From Gammaproteobacteria bacterium (GTDB lineage: Bacteria; Pseudomonadota; Gammaproteobacteria; CAJXQU01), in assembly GCA_965238175.1 (NCBI GenBank), contig CBDEGZ010000003.1, positions 2,784,001-2,848,000 of the forward strand: DNA of 64,000 nt, written 5' to 3'. The translations under genes and the position numbers were made by a program. Below the pieces are notes generated by a model. The model saw only the letters and a list, made by a program, of their open reading frames with translations. It was not told the DNA's origin and did no database searches. Position 1 is the stretch's first letter. Each line of letters starts with the position of its first letter. This document shows positions 9,365-64,000 of this stretch, piece after piece.

Positions 9365-11710
9365 TTATTTCTTCAAAGCCTGTTGCAACGCTGAAGCAAA
9401 GGCCGTGTTGCCAGGCGGTTTTGCCTGGTTATTTTTATTTGATTGATTAGGCTTTCTATTATTTTTTTTGCGATCTGGCTTCCTACTTGTTGGTACTGGC
9501 ACTGACACTTTCTTTTCATTATCAGCCCTATCAGTCGAGACTTCTTTCTTCATCGTCAAAGCAATTCGCTTACGTTTTTCATCTACTTCTGTAACGCGGA
9601 CTTTTACTATGTCACCTGCTTTCACCACTTCATTCGGATCTTTGACGAAGCGATCTGCTAGTTGTGAAACGTGCACAAGACCATCTTGATGTACGCCAAT
9701 ATCAACGAACGCACCGAAGTTGGTGACATTGGTGACAACACCTTCCAGTTGCATACCAATTTCTAGATCAGTAAGTTTTTCGACACCTTCTGAGAATTCT
9801 GCCGTTTTGAATTCAGGGCGAGGATCGCGCCCAGGTTTTTCCAGTTCCGCAATAATATCGACAATCGTCGGCACACCAAATTGTTCATCTGTGTAGTCGG
9901 AGGCTTTAAGGCTTTTCAAGAACTGGCTGTCGCCGATCAGATCTGTAATCTCTCGGGATTGCTGTTGCGAGATTTTTGTAACGACAGGATAAGCTTCTGG
10001 ATGAACGGCTGATGCATCTAGGGGATTGTCTCCTTTGCGTATTCTTAAAAAACCGGCCGCTTGTTCATAGGCTTTTGGACCTAATCGGGGAATACTGAGA
10101 AACTCTTTACGGTTTTTAAAGGCGCCATTAGCATCTCGATATTCGACCATATTTTGTGCGAGGGTTTCGTTGAGACCAGACACTTGTTTTAGCAATGCGG
10201 CAGAAGCAATATTCACATCTACGCCAACCGCATTTACACAGTTTTCGACGACGCCTTCTAGTGATCGCGCCAGTTGGGTTTGATTTACATCATGTTGATA
10301 TTGACCTACGCCAATTGCTTTTGGATCAATTTTAACCAACTCGGGCAGAGGATCTTGTAACCGTCGAGCAATCGAAACTGCGCCACGAATTGATACATCG
10401 AGATCCGGAAATTCTTTGGCTGCTATTTCAGAAGCGGAATAAACGGATGCACCCGCTTCTGACACCATCAATTTTTGCAGATCGAGATCAGGGTTTAGTT
10501 TAATCAAATCCGCAGCCAGTTTGTCGGTTTCTCGTGAGGCGGTTCCATTTCCAATACTGATCAAACTAATGGAATGTTTTTTGATCAATTTAGTTAAGGT
10601 TGCAAGCGATGCATCCCACTGTTTTTTTGGTGCATGTGGGTAGATGGTATCGAAATCAACTACTTTGCCGGTGGTATTGACTACAGCGACTTTGACGCCA
10701 GTACGAATACCCGGATCTAATCCTAACGTTGCTTTTGCACCGGCGGGTGGAGCGAGCAATAGTGCATTTAGATTAACCGAAAATACGCGGATGGCTTCTT
10801 CTTCAGCTTGTTCACGCAGACGCATTTTGAGATCTAAATCTAAATGCGTACGGACTTTAACTTTCCAGGCCCATTCGACTACTTCTTGTAACCAGCTATC
10901 TGCTGCACGGCCTTTGTCTTCGATATTGAATGTGTTAGCGATATCGGTAATCGCCGGATGTGTGGCCCGATATGTAGCTAGACCTTCGACAGGGATATCC
11001 AAATTGAGCATTAAGATCCCCTCATTACGGCCACGGAAGATGGCCAGTGCGCGGTGCGGCGGGACCTTATTGATAGCTTCACTGTATTCAAAGTAATCCG
11101 AAAACTTTTGGCCTTCCTGTTCTTTTCCTGCGATCACTTGTGAAGTGAGGATCCCTTGTTTCCAGAGTTGTTCGCGTAAACGACCGATGAGTTCAGCATT
11201 TTCGGAAAACTGTTCCATCAATATTTGTTTAGCGCCATCTAATGCATCTTTGATTTCGTTGATTTTTTGATCAGGTGCGAGAAATTTTGCGGCTTCTACT
11301 TCAGGATCATGTGTTGGATCTTCAAACAATAATTGAGCAAGTGGTTCAAGCCCAGCTTCTCGTGCGATTTGCGCTTTGGTGCGGCGTTTAGGCTTATAAG
11401 GCAGGTAGAGATCTTCCAGCTTGGTTTTGGTTTCAGCAGCCTCAAGAGAATCACACAGTTCCTCGGTTAATTTTCCTTGCTCATCAATACTTTTCAGGAT
11501 CGTTTCCCGACGTTCCTCCAACTCTCTTAAATATCGCAACCTTTCTTCAAGATTGCGTAGTTGCGTATCGTCTAAGCCACCGGTTTTTTCTTTTCTATAG
11601 CGAGAAATAAACGGAACGGTTGATCCTTCATCTAATAGTTCTATAGCAGCACTGGTTTGTTTCGGTGAGACATTGAGTTCTTGTGCGATCTGAGCAGAGA
11701 TATTCAACAT
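9365..11710 (-). CDS. tex: Tex-family transcription accessory protein (YqgF, HhH, S1)
   Basis: [31 protein letters not shown]1 domain [16 protein letters not shown]. Confidence 0.95.
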
Positions 11711-12098: not shown

Positions 12099-12683
12099 TT
12101 AATTCTCAGTACCAAAGAAAAATGTTTGGAATAAGCGGCCATCTTGTACATCACTACCGAAATAGTCCAGTGATGTATGGAAGTTATCTCCACGATATAA
12201 GATCAGTCTGTTGTATTTGTTACCGACAAAGTCTGTCATCTCCCATTTAGTCATATCCTGAGAATCTTTATAGATCTCATCCATTACTTCTTTGTTGTAT
12301 GAACCATCAACGTTTTTTACAGCCATTTCAAGACCCGTTTCTTTATGCCGGAATAAACCAGTACCACCAGTTAATGGAGCATCCGGAGTTAAATATAGAA
12401 CCCCTGCCCAAGTTGTAGTTTGATCAGCATGAACCCATGAACGATCTCTTTGAGTTGTATATTGAAATGCTCCAGTGTACTCACAAGATTCCCACATTGT
12501 GATTTCACCAGCATAAGGTTTGATAATATCACTGATGAGATTCTTAACTTGATCATTCTTTACAGGGACAGTTCTTTGACCTGGGTAATTACCTCTAACG
12601 CCAAATTCCATACCTAACGCCATCTCTCTTACTTCGTCGACATCTTCATAGAAGTTTTCGACACAAATACTATTTACATGCAT
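12099..12683 (-). CDS. DUF6445-like 2OG-Fe(II) oxygenase-fold protein
   Basis: VENFYEDVDEVR, GNYPGQRT, WVHAD, AGVLYLTP, GTGLFRH, NRLILYRG..FH, RLFQTFF (HxD...H...R). Confidence 0.75.
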   Translation of the reverse strand: MHVNSICVENFYEDVDEVREMALGMEFGVRGNYPGQRTVPVKNDQVKNLISDIIKPYAGEITMWESCEYTGAFQYTTQRDRSWVHADQTTTWAGVLYLTPDAPLTGGTGLFRHKETGLEMAVKNVDGSYNKEVMDEIYKDSQDMTKWEMTDFVGNKYNRLILYRGDNFHTSLDYFGSDVQDGRLFQTFFFGTEN

Positions 12684-15739: not shown

Positions 15740-18193
15740 TCAAACAGCCTTTCTGATCCTTAAGGCATTTGTAACAACGATCAATGAGCTCAACGACATT
15801 CCGACTGCTGCCATCCAGGGCTCTAATAATCCAGTCACTGCGAGTGGTAAAGCAATAATATTATAGAGCACTGCCCAGGTAAGATTCTGCTTTATTATTT
15901 TGATGGTTTTTCGGGAAATATCTATAGCTCTGACAATGATAGCAAGCTGATCTCTTAATAAAATAAGATCAGCATTAGCGCGAGTAATTTCTGCGCCACT
16001 GCCCATCGCAATTGAAACCTCTGCTCCTGCTAGCACTGGAGCATCATTTATACCATCACCAACCATTGCGACAATTTCCCCCTGTTGTTGCAACTTCCGT
16101 ATCTCAGTTAGTTTTTGATCTGGTTTCATACCAAACTTAAAGTGATCAATTTTTAATTTTTTTGCCAGTGTTCTCACCACCGCTTCACAATCTCCGGAGC
16201 AAAGTGAAACATTTTTGACTCTTTCTTTTAACATGGAGATCATTTCCATTGCATCAGAACGCATTGCATCCTCGAAAATAAAAACAGCAAGCAATTTATT
16301 TTCATCGGCAAGAAATACATTCGATAAACCTGACATTCCTAATGAATGAATTAATGTTTTTGGTAATGTCGCTTGTGACCCATCCTTAATATGATCCACA
16401 TTACCGATCAAATATTTAACATCCTTAATAACACCGGTAAATCCTGCGCCAGGAGCATTAAATAATTCTTTTGCCTCAAGTAATAATGCTTTGTTATCGA
16501 ACATGGATAAGATTGATTTAGCGATGGGATGTTCGGAATATTGCTCTAATGAAGCCGCAATTTGTAGACATTGTTCTTTTGTCTCCTCTGAAAATATTTC
16601 AATTTTTTTTAATTGCAAATGACCTTTCGTCAGAGTACCCGTTTTATCAAAAACAAAATGATCGACATGAGCAAGTGTTTCTATCGCATGTCCGCGTATA
16701 CCTAAAATACCTGCTTTCATCAGTACATCTGTTGCGACAGTCATCGCGGCAGGAGTTGCCAACGACAGTGCACAAGGACAAGTCACCACCAATATCGACA
16801 ACATGATTTCAAACCAGTGTGGATTACCGATGAACCACCAATAAAAAGAAGTAAGCACTGTAAGACAAATAATGATCGGCACAAACCATGCTGCAGCCCG
16901 ATCGGCTAACTTTGTGATCTCGGGCTTTTCCATTTGTGACTGTTCCATAAGATGGGTAATACGAGACAGCAAACTATCCTTGCCAATAGAGTCAACAATG
17001 ATTTGTAATGGGCTTTCAACATTAATACTTCCACCAATAACCTGATCGTCAATACTTTTCACTATAGGCACACTTTCACCCGTTAATATTGATTCATTAA
17101 TGCTGGATCGCCCTTCGACAATATGACCATCAGCAGGAATTTTTTCACCCGCTAGCACCAGAACACGATCACCGATATTTAAACGTGCTACCGGGATACA
17201 CTCTTGCAAATTATTGTTGATTCGTACTGCTGTGCTTGGCGTCAAATAGATCAGGTTTTCTGATGTTTCGGATGCTTTTTTACGCGAGATCAACTCCAAG
17301 TATCGTGCCGTTAACAAAAAGAAATTAAACATAACTACAGAATCAAAATAGATCTCGCCAGAACCTGTTATGGTTGCTTTCACACTGCCCAGAAAGGCAA
17401 TCAATATTCCTAAAGAAACAGGAACGTCCATTCCTAATTTTCGATGTTTTAAGGCACGTATTGCGGGATCAAAAAAGGCTCTGGATGAAAATACTACGAC
17501 TGGCACTGTTAAGAATAAACTTACCCAACGAAAGAAATGTTGGTACTTGTAACCATCTCCTAAAAAATCCCCACTGTATAAAGCAATTGCCAACATCATC
17601 ACTTGCACTCCCATGATTCCGGCAATTCCAAGTTGTTGTAATAGACGTTTTTGCTCGCTCTCTATGAGATGCTGATACTGTTCCGAATTGTAGGGATAAG
17701 CTTTGTAACCAATAGCATGAATCGCCTTCAAAATTCCACTGAACTTAACCGTGTTTTCATTCCACTTAACATGCAAACGTCGGGTGGAAAAATTTGCTTG
17801 AGCATTAAGGATGCCCGGGGTGTTTTTTAAATGTTGCTCATTCATCCAAACACATGCTGGACAAGTAATTCCTTCAATAATCAATGTCGCTTCGCGTTCA
17901 TCGTGGATCAGTTCAGTGACAAAACTTTTCTGTAATTCAGGTTCATCATAAACCGTTAGTTGCTCTAAAAAATCAGGTAAGACATTCTCGGCAGTCGGGG
18001 CGGACGCAGTGCGATTTCGATAAAAACCTCCCAAACCTGAAGCAACAATAATTTCCGCTACCGCTTGGCACCCCGCGCAACACATCGATCGATTCAGACC
18101 GTCAATACTTACTTGCAGCTCCAGATCCGTAGAAACAGGCAACCCACAGTGATAGCAAATTTGATCGTGTAAAGCGTCATCCATTCGTAACAT
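15740..18193 (-). CDS. ccoI: Copper P1B-type ATPase for cbb3 assembly (start 18184-18208 uncertain)
   Basis: CYHCG, CCAGC, CPAC, TGES, CPCALSLATP, DKTGT, GDGINDAP. Confidence 0.93.
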   Translation of the reverse strand: MLRMDDALHDQICYHCGLPVSTDLELQVSIDGLNRSMCCAGCQAVAEIIVASGLGGFYRNRTASAPTAENVLPDFLEQLTVYDEPELQKSFVTELIHDEREATLIIEGITCPACVWMNEQHLKNTPGILNAQANFSTRRLHVKWNENTVKFSGILKAIHAIGYKAYPYNSEQYQHLIESEQKRLLQQLGIAGIMGVQVMMLAIALYSGDFLGDGYKYQHFFRWVSLFLTVPVVVFSSRAFFDPAIRALKHRKLGMDVPVSLGILIAFLGSVKATITGSGEIYFDSVVMFNFFLLTARYLELISRKKASETSENLIYLTPSTAVRINNNLQECIPVARLNIGDRVLVLAGEKIPADGHIVEGRSSINESILTGESVPIVKSIDDQVIGGSINVESPLQIIVDSIGKDSLLSRITHLMEQSQMEKPEITKLADRAAAWFVPIIICLTVLTSFYWWFIGNPHWFEIMLSILVVTCPCALSLATPAAMTVATDVLMKAGILGIRGHAIETLAHVDHFVFDKTGTLTKGHLQLKKIEIFSEETKEQCLQIAASLEQYSEHPIAKSILSMFDNKALLLEAKELFNAPGAGFTGVIKDVKYLIGNVDHIKDGSQATLPKTLIHSLGMSGLSNVFLADENKLLAVFIFEDAMRSDAMEMISMLKERVKNVSLCSGDCEAVVRTLAKKLKIDHFKFGMKPDQKLTEIRKLQQQGEIVAMVGDGINDAPVLAGAEVSIAMGSGAEITRANADLILLRDQLAIIVRAIDISRKTIKIIKQNLTWAVLYNIIALPLAVTGLLEPWMAAVGMSLSSLIVVTNALRIRKAV

Positions 18194-58710: not shown

Positions 58711-58857
58711 ACAGAAGAATGTCACAAATTATAAACTAAGAGGCCTTGCTATTTACTTGCGTCAATTATTCATTATTATGGACACATACATCGGGTTCCT
58801 AAACCGGACGTTCGATTGATAAAGGATTATCAATTTTTATTTATAAGGAGATACACT

Positions 58858-59499
58858 ATGAAATTCACAGCTAAAAAGTTAGTTCCTGCCATTGTTTTAA
58901 CCGTAGCATCAACCATCACATTTTCAACACAAGCAACAGTTTATAGTTTCTCAAAAAACGTTACTGGCAAGGCGGTAGAAACTTTTTCAAGTTCTTGGGA
59001 TACTCAGAGCAGTGTTCTCAAATTATCATCAAACTTCAATAATAAGAGAGGGAAGATTGATAAGTACTCTTTTCTTTTGTCGGGTGGTGGTGTCCCTAAT
59101 AGAGCAAAGAAATATTTCCAATATAATTTAGATTTAGTAAACAACCGTGTAACTATTACTGACTATTATGACAAAACTGCCACAAAAGCGACATTTGATA
59201 ATATTATCGATATTAAAGACGGTAGTTTTTCATTGAGTCTTGATCATTCGAGTCTTCTTCAAAAGGATTACATTAAAAAGAATTACAATGTTGGATATGG
59301 AGAAAACATTGGTATTTGGAACTTTTTGTATAGTGGTGGCAGGAAAGTAGATCAGCTTGATGTTCATCGTGCAAAAACTACTGCGACACAATCACCTACT
59401 CCTGGTACTGGCGTACCTGTATCAGAGCCGGGCACATTAGCATTAATGGGCTTAGGATTGTTAGGGATGGTTGGCCGTAGGAAGTTAACTAAGAAATAA
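58858..59499 (+). CDS. PEP-CTERM sorting-domain protein
   Basis: AAGGAG RBS, signal peptide, C-terminal VSEPGTLALMGLGLLGMVGRRK. Confidence 0.9.
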   Translation: MKFTAKKLVPAIVLTVASTITFSTQATVYSFSKNVTGKAVETFSSSWDTQSSVLKLSSNFNNKRGKIDKYSFLLSGGGVPNRAKKYFQYNLDLVNNRVTITDYYDKTATKATFDNIIDIKDGSFSLSLDHSSLLQKDYIKKNYNVGYGENIGIWNFLYSGGRKVDQLDVHRAKTTATQSPTPGTGVPVSEPGTLALMGLGLLGMVGRRKLTKK

Positions 59500-59554: not shown

Positions 59555-59644
59555 GTTTAAGGGATAAAGGCTCAGTAACAAGATGACCGAATCGACCAGC
59601 GATAATAAAATGAAAGCTCCTTCTCTAGTCGAAATGCTGAATAA

Positions 59645-60023
59645 ATGCTGACTAAAAGCCATACGGGTGGTTTTCAACCGAATTTGATTGGGAATGAGAC
59701 TTACTTCAACTACTAACTCCCTCTACCCCTTTACTAGTGCTATCCGCTCGCAATTCCCTGGCATGACTTTGAGCAAGCCCTTGCCAAGCACTACACTCAG
59801 GGATTTAGCTATATGGCAGAAAAATCTCCATTGCCAGCACAGCGAAAGGCAATATCATCGTTGGTACAATGAGTCACTTACAGAGCCTGCATGACAGCCA
59901 TACTTTTTACTGCCGTAGTGATGCATATCGAAACGTTACGGGGTAAAGTCGTTCACACAGTTGTTTGTGTTCGAGACTATCGAAGCCATCATTGGCTATC
60001 TGAAATCAGATTTTCGGTTATGA
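59645..60023 (+). mobile_element. Internally deleted, frameshifted IS5-family transposase relic
   Basis: Fragments PLLVLSA/IPWHDFEQALAKHY, KISIASTAKGNIIVG...LHDSHT, VCVRDYR (cf. DRGYRG), IEAIIGYLKSDFRL (cf. IEPIIGHLK.D.RL). Confidence 0.8.
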
Positions 60024-60290
60024 AAAAAGACCATCGAATTTTTGGTTATGAGAAAAATGATATTTACTCAACAAAAATGATTCTATTATCAATTTTTACA
60101 AATGAAGTAGAAAACAATCCATTTTATTGTAAATATAGAACATTTTACGACACAAATGGAATGACACATTTGAAGCTAAAATATGTAGCCACTGAAGGTG
60201 ATTTTTTGAATATTGAGATAATAAAAGAAGGGAAAACGATTGATGAAGTTTATATGCTAAAAAAATAGTTTGAATTTGAGAAAAAAGCCA
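60020..60290 (+). pseudogene. 5'-truncated cassette gene fused to the IS5 relic
   Basis: Abrupt drop to AT-rich coding sequence KDHRIFGY...MILLSIFTNEVENNPF...; reading continues KK*FEFEK up to the first attC-like site. Confidence 0.55.
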
Positions 60291-60423
60291 GTTGCCAATT
60301 AAAATATATAATTTATTGTTAGTTCTAGCCTGCTTACAAAAATCTCCGCAGATTTTCTATTCGGACTTTATTTACTAAATTAGATGCTTATCCACACAGC
60401 AAACTATATACCAAACGTTAGCT
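60291..60423 (+). other. attC-like site 1 (degenerate R'')
   Basis: TGCCAAT...GTTAGCT ends; internal AAAATCTCCGCAGATTTT hairpin. Confidence 0.6.
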
Positions 60424-60442
60424 ACAGTTAGAGACAACCAAA

Positions 60443-60963
60443 ATGAATGAAAAATTAGAAAACATAAAATTTGAATTGGTGAAATTTACTGAACTTGAAG
60501 TTGAAAAGTTTTTAAGAGAAAACTCTGAAAAAAACATTTTATGCATTTGCCTACGATTACAATGCTGAATATGCAGAAATTAATATTTGTTTCAATACAG
60601 AAGAAGATTTTGAAAAGACACTGAAACATTATCAAATATGGAAATTTGTCTCAGCATTACCAAACCAAAGAAGATATTGTGGACTTAAAATACAGTACTG
60701 GAGATTGGGGTTATCAATGCTTTTCTTCTATAAATGTATTTTCAGAAGATGAACTAACTAAAATACTTGAGAATTTTCCCGAGGATAATTACAAATCTTG
60801 GAAAAAATTTGTTGAGGAATTGATCCAGTCGTTTACTAAATCCATAGCTGATTTTAGTAAAACAAGAACCTTTGAGAAAATTTCTAAAACTGACAACTTT
60901 AAATTTTTTTGTATAGACCATGATGAAAATATTGAAGAAGTCGAAAAAAGAATAAAAAAATAA
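60443..60963 (+). pseudogene. Frameshifted DUF4303-like cassette gene
   Basis: ATG 60443; shifts near 60535 and 60637; FYAFAYD...ICFNTEEDF...LKYSTGDWGY...FFCIDHDE. Confidence 0.65.
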
Positions 60964-60967
60964 AAGT

Positions 60968-61096
60968 AGCTAACAATATATAAAAATAATAGCGATTTTA
61001 GTACTAAATTCAAAGTGAGTTTTTGTACAAAGTTTAGTACCAAATTGAAAGATTAGCACTTTAAATCCGCTACCATTCTTATATTCATCGTTAGCA
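60968..61096 (+). other. attC-like site 2 (best preserved)
   Basis: AGCTAAC...GTTAGCA; nested arms AATATA/TATATT, TAGCG/CGCTA, GATTT/AAATC, AGTACTAA/TTAGCACT. Confidence 0.75.
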
Positions 61097-61115
61097 AACC
61101 TTAAGAGGGGAAAAT

Positions 61116-62354
61116 ATGGGAATAGTTACTGGATTAGACTTAATACATCGTGAAATCACCTCAGAAATGTATCGAATAAATAAGGGAGAAACCACGTCTT
61201 TTATTAAGCAATTAAAAGCAAAACCGTTCAAGATAAAAGACCTTTATCCTTTGTTGAAATCTGAACTGACCGATAACACAAAATTTCAAATCAATAGAAT
61301 TGCGGAAGACACACTAGAAATAGAAGAAATTATTGACGAGGAGTATCAAGAAGAATGCAATGTTTATGATCTATCCAACACCAGTGAAAAAGGAGTAACC
61401 ATAACGAGTCACTATTTTATGCCCTTGCTGCATGAGCTGCTTTCCCACTTTGCACTCGTTGGCAAAAATGTTCAAATAGATTGTAATGGCATTACTAGTT
61501 ACTATCGCACCCCAGAAACCTTTACAAACAATGAGTATCGTTATTACCACTATGTCGAAACATTTGGCATTAACGACCTCTATGCGGGGATACAGAAACA
61601 CATTGACAACTTTAAGGGCTATACTGATTATTGGACATTAACCTTGTTTGATGAGAATTTTCAAATTGAACTAAGTAATCGCAGCAGTGATATATATGAA
61701 GGAGACACAGTAGTCACTCCTGAAGATGAATTCTATAACATCACTATTAGTCAATTACTGCTCCCTCTGGGCGGTCTTGAAAAAGCATATGAAATAGATG
61801 ATAACTATTACTATTCTAGACTATCCTATGCTGAAGTACTCGCTAGTACAAAAAGCTTAATTGAAGCGTTGATAAAAACAGGGAAGGACGGCTTTCTTAC
61901 CACCTTTACGCCAAGCAGCCCATACTATTATAATTTGACTGCCCATATAGAAGAGACAAGCGTAGACCATGTCCTAGAATTTTTGGATATGCCTGATCGT
62001 TATAAGCAAGGGAATAAAATCACACATACCATCCATAAACAAGACCAGGATACGATTAAAATTACCGCTACCCAAAAAGGCACTCGTGTTGGGAATTCTA
62101 TCACCATAACGGATAATAATATTTTAAAGGGAGGACTCGACTTTGATAAATTTTATGATGAGGAAATATTTGCTGTTTTAACCAATACCATTGCCAAGCA
62201 CTTCTGTCCTTGTTATATCAGCTGCGTCGAAATGATTGAATACAGTGGATTTGCTATTTATTACAACGATGAAAAGGATAAACAACTCATTGAAAAGAAT
62301 TTTGCAAAAATAATTGGCATGGAAGAATATGGTTATCAATTTATAAAAGTATAA
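61116..62354 (+). CDS. Hypothetical acidic protein (cassette gene)
   Basis: 412-aa ORF bounded by attC-like sites; AGAGGGG RBS. Confidence 0.75.
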   Translation: MGIVTGLDLIHREITSEMYRINKGETTSFIKQLKAKPFKIKDLYPLLKSELTDNTKFQINRIAEDTLEIEEIIDEEYQEECNVYDLSNTSEKGVTITSHYFMPLLHELLSHFALVGKNVQIDCNGITSYYRTPETFTNNEYRYYHYVETFGINDLYAGIQKHIDNFKGYTDYWTLTLFDENFQIELSNRSSDIYEGDTVVTPEDEFYNITISQLLLPLGGLEKAYEIDDNYYYSRLSYAEVLASTKSLIEALIKTGKDGFLTTFTPSSPYYYNLTAHIEETSVDHVLEFLDMPDRYKQGNKITHTIHKQDQDTIKITATQKGTRVGNSITITDNNILKGGLDFDKFYDEEIFAVLTNTIAKHFCPCYISCVEMIEYSGFAIYYNDEKDKQLIEKNFAKIIGMEEYGYQFIKV

Positions 62355-62358
62355 CATT

Positions 62359-62485
62359 TGCTAACAATAGATATAAAAAATAGTGGAGCAAGTGCCAAAA
62401 CGAAAGTATAAAAATAAAGGCCAGTAATAGTTTGAAAAGTTGGAATGTTATAATCTACTGCTTTTTACATGCTAAACGCTGAGCA
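62359..62485 (+). other. attC-like site 3 (degenerate R')
   Basis: TGCTAAC just after the stop; TAAAAAATAGTGGA / TCTACTGCTTTTTA arms; ends AAACGCTGAGCA. Confidence 0.6.
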
Positions 62486-62496
62486 ATATTTAAAAT

Positions 62497-63159
62497 ATGA
62501 TTCTAAAAGATATCTTTAATAGTAAAGAAATTGATAATTATTTGGTTGCTCATTGGAAGAATATTTTTCATTCTGATTTCATTGCCAAAAGAAAAATCCA
62601 TAATAATGTGGATGAAAAAGAAATGCCCTTCATTATTGAATTGCTTAATGATGAAAACAAAAAATGGTTTGTTGCATCATATATCAATACGGTCGACTCC
62701 TTTAATAAAGAATTATTCAAGAAACTTATTGAGGTTGGAGTTAATACACCGGATCCTAGTTATAATAGTCTCTTTATTCATCCTTGTTCGAGAGTTTTTG
62801 GATGCAATAAAGTATTAGAAGAATTGGGTAAATTATTAGATAAGAATTTTGAAAATGCAGATGGGATCTTAAAATCAATTTATCACGTTTACTCTCTTAT
62901 AGTCTCAGTTAGACAATTTGATGCTGACTGGGAACAAATTGGTTTAAAATACTTATGGGATTCAGATAAAGGTTTTTTCGATTTCAGCCCTAAAAATCCG
63001 GGCTGTAAAATGACTTCTAAAGAATTTCAGGAATACTTACCAACACATTATGAATTTCTTGAAAGAAAGAAAAATTTGATTGTATCTATCAAAAATAAGA
63101 CAACTAATAAGAGTACCATTAAACAAGCCGATCATTTAATTCTACTAATGGAAGAATAG
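62497..63159 (+). CDS. Hypothetical protein (cassette gene)
   Basis: 220-aa AT-rich ORF between attC-like sites; PDPSYNSLFIHPC motif. Confidence 0.75.
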   Translation: MILKDIFNSKEIDNYLVAHWKNIFHSDFIAKRKIHNNVDEKEMPFIIELLNDENKKWFVASYINTVDSFNKELFKKLIEVGVNTPDPSYNSLFIHPCSRVFGCNKVLEELGKLLDKNFENADGILKSIYHVYSLIVSVRQFDADWEQIGLKYLWDSDKGFFDFSPKNPGCKMTSKEFQEYLPTHYEFLERKKNLIVSIKNKTTNKSTIKQADHLILLMEE

Positions 63160-63161
63160 TC

Positions 63162-63335
63162 GCACAACACAGCATATAAAACATAGTTAGCAAGCACTAA
63201 ACAGAAAGAGTTGCTCCTGTTTACAAAGACTGCGAAATTTTTTAAATTTGATTTTTAAGACCATATTCGTCCACATAAATTCTTGCACCTCAACTAGGAA
63301 ACAATATCTATCATATAGATCGAAATCGAACGTAT
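63162..63335 (+). other. attC-like site 4 (left half clear, right end decayed)
   Basis: GCACAAC-ACAGCATATAAAACATAG..GCAAGCACTAAACAGAAAG parallels site 3 GCTAAC-AATAGATATAAAAAATAG..GCAAGTGCCAAAACGAAAG. Confidence 0.55.
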
Positions 63336-63436
63336 TCCCTAAATAAACAAAATATCCTCCAGACCAATTCAAATTATTTACAATTTACGGGGGGAGACGT
63401 AAATTACTTTTAGGAATTTTCCAAACCTTAAAACAA

Positions 63437-64000
63437 TTATGGAAGTTTCACTTTTTTCTTCTTCGGAACCACTCTTTTGGGGTCTTTAAACGTTATACCT
63501 GTTAATTCATGAGTTTCAAATTTGGTTTTAAAGTCCAAAGTGCAATATAGCAAAAGATCAGACATATTTTTATCCAGAAAAAGACTGTTTCCAAGCTTAT
63601 CAGAAGTAGAAAAATCATAAATTGTTTGATTATTTTTCTCTATAATTGTACAGGCTGTTTCTACAGCCTTAACTCGCATTCCAAAATACTTTAATCTTGA
63701 ATGAATATTTATGGCTTGGAATACATCGCCACAATCGAATAAGTCCGATTCAAATAGCTGCCAAAATCTCTGAGAGAAAATAATTATTGGTCGACATTTA
63801 GCAGAGAAATCTATACCAACTCCCTTATAAATTTCGCCCTCCCTGTTAAGAGATTCGATAGGAAATTCCATGGTTGCGTCTATATGGCTTATTCCTTCGA
63901 TGTATATCTTAGTGGCGATAAGATCATCATAATCTGCATCTTCGTCGTCGACAAAGTCCAGTTCCCCGGTGTTCTCATCTGGTATAACTTCAAATAACAT
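63437..64000 (-). CDS. Putative Imm11/Imm43-like immunity protein (start at window edge)
   Basis: IIIFSQRFWQLF and C-terminal LYCTLDFKTKFETHELTGITF pattern. Confidence 0.45.
   Translation of the reverse strand: MLFEVIPDENTGELDFVDDEDADYDDLIATKIYIEGISHIDATMEFPIESLNREGEIYKGVGIDFSAKCRPIIIFSQRFWQLFESDLFDCGDVFQAINIHSRLKYFGMRVKAVETACTIIEKNNQTIYDFSTSDKLGNSLFLDKNMSDLLLYCTLDFKTKFETHELTGITFKDPKRVVPKKKKVKLP

Follow-up and report, generated by a model that had tools for sequence, protein, structure and literature searches.

The arrays called rAID-1, found in Bacteroidales, pair a XerD-like recombinase with co-directional runs of low-G+C orphan immunity genes (10.1101/471110; 10.1101/2025.05.03.651265). 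In the passages of these papers devoted to rAID-1, the conserved intergenic motifs are called “reminiscent of integrons”, recombination sites and crossover being uncharacterised there. By the definition given in 10.1101/471110, the recombinase is at least 44% identical to BF9343_RS08045 and is followed by at least two co-directional genes with a G+C content of at most 41%. Here we describe a comparable locus in a gammaproteobacterial genome. The stretch of DNA analysed, hereafter the window, is 64,000 nucleotides long and corresponds to positions 2784001-2848000 of contig CBDEGZ010000003.1 (C3); coordinates are given in window numbering unless prefixed C3. Its segment 60024-63230 is probably a decaying, recombinase-less fragment of a Bacteroidota-type, integron-like (rAID-like) cassette array, residing in a Pseudomonadota chromosome. 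Under the label integron-like, strict membership among attC sites, or among clusters of attC sites lacking an integron-integrase (CALIN), was judged only with a narrow model of the host's own attC sites.

As to integrons proper, the part of the IntegronFinder 2 paper that deals with Bacteroidetes credits them with only In0 elements and one complete integron, and a passage of a 2024 preprint places Bacteroidota among the clades “previously found without any integrons”. In the open-access literature, supplements aside, no description was found of arrays with sites of about 136 nt in Flavobacteriia, and only the rAID papers report something similar.

Sites of the window and the family they belong to

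Four same-strand, AT-rich genes or gene relics succeed one another in the segment, each with a site behind its stop codon (25, 5, 5 and 3 nt away for sites 1 to 4, respectively). They had been noticed in a reading of the letters made without database searches (the sequence-only reading), and the motifs quoted there are all in place: TGCCAAT at 60293, AGCTAAC at 60968, TGCTAAC at 62359, GCACAAC at 63162, and GTTAGC at 60417 and 61090. Scores in the list below refer to R2, a model of the site family built from six seeds, namely site 2 and five loci from other genomes presented further on.

60024..60268, plus strand: gene 1, a relic truncated at its 5' end, no Pfam match
60293..60428, plus strand: site 1, heavily decayed, core GCCAAT...GTTAGC, R2 9.9 bits, E 0.39
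60443..60963, plus strand: gene 2, a DUF4303 pseudogene, Pfam DUF4303 at E 4.7e-9 on the 3' piece
60968..61101, plus strand: site 2, intact, about 134 nt, GCTAAC...GTTAGC, R2 114.2 bits (one of the six seeds)
61116..62354, plus strand: gene 3, an intact orphan open reading frame (ORF) of 412 aa, no Pfam match
62359..62490, plus strand: site 3, a decayed full-length copy, R2 52.9 bits, E 6e-11, model positions 1-138, not a seed
62497..63159, plus strand: gene 4, an intact ORF of 220 aa, Pfam matches sub-threshold only
63162..63230, plus strand: site 4, a left-arm stump, left arm matching sites 2 and 3

Site 2 is the only significant palindrome by itself. Its arm-versus-arm score was 21, compared with 9.3 ± 1.9 in shuffles, and was reached by none of 500 shuffles; its bottom strand folds at −20.2 kcal/mol (z −5.3). 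The observed arm scores of sites 1, 3 and 4 were reached by 203, 89 and 500 of 500 shuffles, respectively, and their folds have z above 0. The earlier statement that each gene is followed by an imperfect palindrome therefore holds by arm and fold tests at site 2, and not at sites 1, 3 and 4, site 3 being recognised by R2 as a decayed member of the family. Of the others, site 1 is a marginal case and site 4 a stump. One site in four is thus intact, and the palindrome with AAC...GTT cores directly after a cassette gene is complete at site 2 and present as decayed copies at the other three.

Left arms are alike among sites 2, 3 and 4 (70-81% identity), with 38/52 aligned positions identical between sites 3 and 4, a likeness also seen by the sequence-only reading, 37/53 between sites 2 and 3 and 38/47 between sites 2 and 4. 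When full-length matches at E ≤ 1e-3 are retained, R2 includes sites 2 and 3 and leaves out sites 1 and 4. Site 1 is 69.7% identical over 132 nt (E 1e-12) to another place in the host chromosome, C3:1083102-1083232. The left arm of site 4 also resembles host copies at C3:1084145-1084324 and C3:2855269-2855428; it gave no R2 match with filters off, the sole hit in the span of the site being 63196-63230 (5.6 bits, E 3.8). Its right arm is gone where the array meets convergent minus-strand genes.

Simpler searches had little to offer. Rfam yielded no family for the sites, giving three weak hits at E ≥ 0.72; one of the three, site 2 with a microRNA hairpin model, reached 21.9 bits where the gathering score is 90. 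With site 2 alone as query, nhmmer returned two marginal copies only, and regular expressions written loosely for the arms returned chance hits for the most part. Some minor contigs of a public sequencing run match the window up to 60255 and 62382, where they depart into unrelated sequence, with loose ends of 178 and 91 nt; these could be an alternative arrangement or another organism's copy.

The family was reached through a right-arm pattern of 21-22 nt, derived from the host copies and scanned over one genome per species. Seven loci were obtained, in Flavobacterium, Tenacibaculum, an uncultured Flavobacteriaceae, Cytophagales, Kapabacteria, Elusimicrobiaceae and a metagenome-assembled genome labelled Parcubacteria. 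At five of them a full palindrome aligns with site 2 from end to end, with 41 invariant columns; the aligned taxa include Flavobacterium, Tenacibaculum, Cytophagales, Kapabacteria and the Parcubacteria-labelled genome. At a sixth locus (L020) an R2 site lies over the pattern match. The Elusimicrobiaceae locus (L018) has no R2 site and was discarded as a chance match. R2 is strand-specific, the given strand scoring far above the opposite one (for example, 137 versus 26 bits).

Distribution was measured at E ≤ 1e-6 with stricter filters, in 151 genomes of the phylum of Tenacibaculum (Bacteroidota) and 150 genomes of the host class other than the host itself. Sites were detected in 58 of the 151 and in 2 of the 150. 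With three of the seven pattern loci in Flavobacteriaceae, the suggestion that the sites are of Flavobacteriaceae style is supported. The two host-class carriers have one site (G008, contig C194) and five sites (G088, contigs C36 and C90), and neither has the recombinase described below; the G088 bin is 86% complete and 5% contaminated, and its site contigs are short and uniformly of 30-40% G+C. In addition, a 4.6-kb contig binned as Candidatus Parcubacteria (L023) holds four R2 sites, and a Kapabacteria chromosome (L021) seven. There are two possible readings: a family that extends past Bacteroidota, or, in the Parcubacteria case, a small contig placed in the wrong bin.

Arrays, crossover and recombinase in Bacteroidota

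Among five carrier genomes, R2 sites number up to at least 95 per genome. Over 200 kb of arrays, 61 sites were counted, every one of them on the same strand; they delimit 51 cassettes with a median length of 1556 bp. Of 115 ORFs with 60 aa or more, 107 follow the array strand. A stop codon is separated from its site by a median of 8 nt, and the end of a site from the next ATG by a median of 26 nt. The window has the same layout.

Pairing in these 61 sites reaches 89% of cells, versus 26-37% when partners are slid, in an alignment that was fitted to the model and hence favours structure. Changes on both sides of a pair were counted in 284 cells versus 101 in shuffles, and affect 16 of 22 pairs. 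The A-T and C-G pairs of the AAC/GTT cores are kept in 59-61 of the 61 sites. At the outer end of the core, the last two pairs are unpaired in 35 and 17 sites, as expected if crossovers make hybrid ends. The bottom strand gives the better fold in 52 of 61 sites, which agrees with the conserved A.C mismatches of the top strand. Site lengths are bimodal, 49 sites having 134-139 nt and 12 having 190-205 nt (L034-L043), the longer class having about 58 nt inserted in the loop. The 3' spacer of the family is 2 nt longer (5-6 versus 3-4 nt).

A trace of recombination is preserved in the Tenacibaculum array, where one cassette is duplicated with 99.75% identity over 2000 bp. Identity starts inside AC|GTT of the upstream site and stops just past GTT of the cassette's own site. 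The ends of the duplicate thus place the crossover in the 3' core (ACGTT), as in integrons.

A tyrosine recombinase gene, or a fragment of one, is found just upstream of the sites and co-directional with them in three of five carriers, two of which have arrays (G032, the Tenacibaculum, and G033) and one a single site (G035). The Tenacibaculum protein (383 aa) has the Pfam Phage_integrase and SAM-like domains and an N-terminal extension of about 95 aa. Its best NCBIfam match is XerA_Arch, with 213.5 bits for a cut-off of 220, and it scores 202 bits with the integron-integrase model TIGR02249, for a cut-off of 265. In the five carrier genomes no protein matches TIGR02249 at this 265-bit cut-off. 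The array-adjacent recombinases have no match to model positions 180-241 of TIGR02249, which we take to be the place of the IntI-specific insertion.

Homologues of this recombinase (E ≤ 1e-40) were present in 51 of the 151 Bacteroidota genomes, of which 34 also had sites; 76 genomes had neither. A comparison of coordinate lists places the recombinase no more than about 16 kb from sites in at least 22 genomes, co-directionally in at least about 15 and divergently in at least about 7. In 8 of 16 genomes examined, the recombinase gene is closely followed by a TATAAAC-NN-GTTRGCAG motif, which has the same sequence as the 3' end of the cassette sites and looks like a simple site equivalent to attI.

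These data bear on a simpler view, in which the palindromes are hairpins placed after genes, of the repetitive extragenic palindromic or terminator kind, and the island of the window is an ordinary acquired island of immunity genes. Strong hairpins close behind stop codons would be accounted for, as would the immunity-type Pfam families of the island (DUF4303; Imm11, Imm26 and DUF4304 just below cut-off; DUF4240 and DUF1963). A hairpin, however, does not explain a duplicated cassette whose two ends coincide exactly with the GTT cores of two sites, nor outer core pairs so often unpaired next to an invariant AAC/GTT. Neither does it predict a strictly uniform site orientation within arrays, or the recurrence, next to the sites, of one recombinase family and of a simple site with the same 3' core. 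We regard this view as unlikely.

The family could also be ancient, or the transfer could have run the other way, from some Pseudomonadota to which it would be native; Bacteroidota would then share it through old descent or have acquired it by transfer. G008 and G088 do carry sites, and no cassette gene can be assigned to a phylum. Such a history is nevertheless very unlikely, given 58/151 versus 2/150 positive genomes, host copies that are decayed and AT-rich relative to the genome, and the short low-G+C contigs and contaminated bin of G088. Moreover, the Bacteroidota recombinase has no orthologue in the host genome and is likewise absent from G008 and G088; the top matches in all three only reach Xer level (E 1e-24 to 1e-29).

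The host island and the native integron

Contig C3 makes up 3.33 Mb of the 3.35-Mb genome, which has 40.4% G+C. The 16S gene is 85.5% identical to that of E. coli over its full length, and the nearest Atlas clusters of MoaA are mostly from Pseudomonadota. By sequence comparison these data are consistent with a gammaproteobacterial host, as had been proposed. From position 60000 on, G+C is 27-38%, versus 40-45% upstream, with a sharp drop at 60024, and the low-G+C island extends past the window, with interruptions, to about C3:2863000 (island, C3:2844-2863 kb). Features that frame the array, and the R2 sites found beyond the window, are as follows.

59565..60023, plus strand: copy of a host repeat, a decayed remnant resembling an insertion sequence (IS), cut at 60023, the left edge of the AT-rich island
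63437..64000, minus strand: first convergent island gene, the island continuing beyond the window
L008 (island continuation) 10624-10739, 11370-11505 and 12269-12428, minus strand: R2 sites
C3:3156886-3157020 (L052 4886-5020), minus strand: R2 site, 58 bits, in a fourth host region

The left edge of the island is exact at 60023/60024, because other copies of the repeat run on differently there: those at C3:1195673-1196134 and C3:1225361-1225988 are 97-98% identical to 59565-60023 and diverge past the point equivalent to 60023. Altogether the host has 10 copies of R2 in at least four separate regions. Relatives of the window spacers lie at C3:1082-1086 kb, at C3:1343-1348 kb and in the minus-strand part of the same island. 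The copy at C3:3156886-3157020 stands 5 nt past the stop codon of a 381-aa minus-strand ORF, within 4 kb of 28-33% G+C. The island holds IS3 and IS481-like elements, of which copies also flank other site-bearing islands of the host.

A chimeric assembly or contamination, with Bacteroidota DNA misjoined to a proteobacterial contig, might be suspected from the abrupt fall in G+C at 60024, and from the fact that the only public run found, probably the source sample, exists as short contigs. Yet the island lies inside a contig of 3.33 Mb, shares its IS481-like and IS3 elements with other host loci, and has related site copies in at least four separate host regions. The junction itself is spanned: a Logan contig of 5796 nt from the public run covers 59992-64000 with 0 differences and crosses 60023/24 with 32 nt on its left. 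An assembly artefact is therefore extremely improbable.

Some observations concern the surroundings. A PEP-CTERM protein gene (58816-59499) precedes the decayed repeat, and the pair recurs at C3:1224738-1225988 (81% identity, 98% in the repeat part); the decayed repeat also occurs by itself at C3:1195673-1196134, 228122, 413177 and 707198. On the other side of the array, 63299-63429 aligns over 132 nt, with 75% identity, to C3:2852987-2853118, where an Imm26-like gene on the minus strand has its 3' end; the window stretch is probably what is left of a paralogue located downstream of the convergent gene 63437-64000. In L008, a 160-nt inverted repeat at 17322-17481, with 40-nt arms 70% complementary, lies between two minus-strand genes and has no R2 match. 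BLASTN did not find the array in six genomes of the same genus.

The host also possesses a true chromosomal integron (C3:2156000-2175925), 670 kb from the window sites. Its intI gene (C3:2174968-2175925) scores 396.5 bits with TIGR02249 and lies opposite in strand to the attC array; it is apparently frameshifted, because the N-terminus (about the first 40 codons) is in another frame. Native attC sites measure 51-106 nt, have a higher G+C content and bear an extra base in the gene-proximal (5') arm. In 20 aligned sites, a two-helix structure with covariation pairs 77% of cells, versus 30-41% when slid. A covariance model, R1, made from these 20 sites, detected 31 sites in the native integron, that is, at least 31 cassettes. 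R1 detected none in the window and the next 15 kb, none at the four window sites with filters off, and none in 223 kb of sequence that includes the 61 Bacteroidota sites along with three host islands; being built on host attC only, it is narrow, and its silence leaves room for a match by a general attC model. Conversely, R2 placed none of the 10 host copies in the native integron, where it gave one weak same-strand attC hit (18 bits, E 0.2), and the pattern GCTAAC-gap-GTTAGC is absent from there.

The window sites could in principle form an ordinary CALIN, with canonical attC made or captured by the host's IntI and later separated from the integron. The presence of a true intI and of at least 31 cassettes invites this explanation, as do the R-box letters TGCTAAC and CGTTAGCA, common to some native cassettes, the same gene-then-site layout and the weak R2 hit. 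Integrases can, in addition, place cassettes outside att sites, according to the abstract of 10.1101/2022.09.11.507474. The window sites are, however, about twice as long as native attC, AT-rich and of another loop geometry; R1, which finds the 31 native sites, finds none in the window, in L008 or in the related arrays; the family is rare in the host class (2/150); and the host intI is apparently frameshifted. A CALIN origin is thus quite unlikely, and the window sites do not belong to the host's own attC family.

No tyrosine recombinase gene is close to any host island, the six PF00589 loci of the host being at 350, 1133, 1588, 1769, 1781 and 2175 kb. The array is therefore integrase-less, as described from the letters, and the true intI serves a different family of sites.

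On a broader scale, the R2 arrays share with integrons and CALINs one or few genes per cassette followed by an imperfect palindrome with AAC...GTT cores, a structure kept more than its sequence, a crossover at the 3' core, a simple site beside the recombinase gene, a mixed and partly defence-like cargo, and the existence of recombinase-less clusters. This layout, together with the cores and covarying arms, bears out the description of the cassettes as attC-like, and a crossover at G/TT of the 3' core is seen in one Tenacibaculum case. Unlike integrons, the family has sites of about 136 nt (about 190-205 nt in the second class) that are AT-rich and strongly conserved in sequence, with an asymmetric loop on the opposite arm, and is unmatched by the host attC model. 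It has neither the extra-base geometry of attC nor an IntI-type integrase, and its sites fall outside attC in the one covariance comparison made, with the narrow native model R1. Its recombinase differs from IntI in lacking the IntI-specific insertion, in scoring below the TIGR02249 cut-off, and in being often co-directional rather than divergent.

Likeness to rAID-1 was judged from the published description of its architecture and cargo. In both systems a tyrosine recombinase is followed by co-directional arrays of short low-G+C genes with conserved intergenic elements, and the orphan immunity genes of rAID-1 may have a counterpart in the DUF4303-, Imm11-, Imm26- and DUF1963-type genes of the host islands. 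The window, with four co-directional ORFs or relics at 27-38% G+C, conforms to the gene part of the rAID-1 definition. Two differences are that sampled ORFs of Flavobacteriia arrays show no immunity family, and that the window copy is without recombinase.

Cargo and proposed history of the array

Two of the four co-directional genes of the window, genes 3 and 4, are intact. The apparent ATG of gene 1, at 60021, is a product of the island junction. Gene 2 reads across three frames and hence has two frameshifts; its DUF4303 match is the one Pfam assignment among the four genes. Among 5183 shared-word candidates drawn from a database of 5.8 billion proteins, the gene 3 product had a single relative, at 82% identity, and a look-up of the gene 4 product in the Atlas gave uninformative leads. 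In the wider host islands, DUF4303 is above cut-off, and Imm11, Imm26 and DUF4304 just under it; DUF4240, DUF1963, ankyrin and leucine-rich repeat proteins are also encoded. These match families typical of polymorphic-toxin immunity loci, and the cargo may accordingly serve in immunity or defence. Comparison of the island ORFs with one another by blastp disclosed no paralogy tying the sites to their upstream genes. Of 20 array ORFs sampled in Flavobacteriia, 9 have a Pfam match and 11 have none; of the former, none is of an immunity family, and they include AIPR, a PLD-like nuclease, an exonuclease with BRCT, hydrolases, TPR and cNMP-binding proteins.

Several observations weigh against a Bacteroidota-type, integron-like origin of the fragment. 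A Shine-Dalgarno-like GAGGGG precedes the ATG of gene 3, and such motifs are atypical for Bacteroidota. When host-island ORFs were searched by tblastn against 16 Bacteroidota loci, a transposase was the only match, with no cassette-gene homologue, so that the taxonomy of the genes is unproven. Ascertainment by R2 is circular for its seeds, and non-circular for site 3, the other host copies and 57 other Bacteroidota genomes; the sampled genomes are related and do not count as independent. Sites and recombinase do not always go together: 24 of 58 site-bearing genomes have no recombinase at E ≤ 1e-40, and 17 of 51 recombinase genomes have no site. The extra bases of the asymmetric loop are in the gene-distal arm (sense strand), opposite to native attC, and the rules that apply to attC may therefore not apply here. 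Finally, the crossover is known from the sequence of a single duplicate in 200 kb searched, outside the window, recombination itself being unobserved.

With these reservations, we still favour a stranded Bacteroidota-type array, and its history might be as follows. In the donor lineage, a cassette would consist of one or a few co-oriented genes and a palindrome of about 136 nt, imperfect, with invariant AAC/GTT, an asymmetric internal loop and covarying arms. A tyrosine recombinase related to Xer and IntI would be encoded beside the array, together with the TATAAAC-NN-GTTRGCAG simple site, and would most likely excise and insert cassettes by a crossover inside ACGTT of the 3' core. Its substrate would probably be a folded single strand, as attC is for integron integrases. 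After transfer, host IS elements would have cut the array and spread it over several AT-rich islands, where sites and genes are now eroding. The cassettes would be stranded in the host because no cognate recombinase exists there, and the element is probably inert, with modest consequence for the host.

The sequence-only reading, which is largely borne out, had proposed the transfer of a whole array across phyla. What is present in the window is a decayed fragment and not a whole array; the family is one common in Bacteroidota, and we infer direction and route of the transfer, the direction from the distribution only.

Bacteroidota are treated as nearly integron-free in the two papers on integrons quoted above, and the only comparable published system found, going by the passages on it, is rAID-1 of gut Bacteroidales. 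The value of the window is as a pointer to a widespread and apparently little-described integron-like platform with invariant AAC/GTT cores, covarying arms, an ACGTT crossover and a simple site. Chances seem to us evenly balanced that these sites and their recombinase constitute a second, widespread integron-type gene-capture platform of Bacteroidota. Such a platform would be present in about one third of the sampled genomes, missed by standard detection, and devoid of the IntI-specific domain yet with the same GTT crossover; the window cassettes would be escapees into other phyla, persisting as stranded arrays. If true, this would document a flow of cassettes from Bacteroidota to Pseudomonadota. 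It would also make directly testable which features of IntI are needed for recombination of folded sites, as the recombinase here is without the domain thought essential for handling attC, and it would widen the known ways by which bacteria stockpile and exchange genes.

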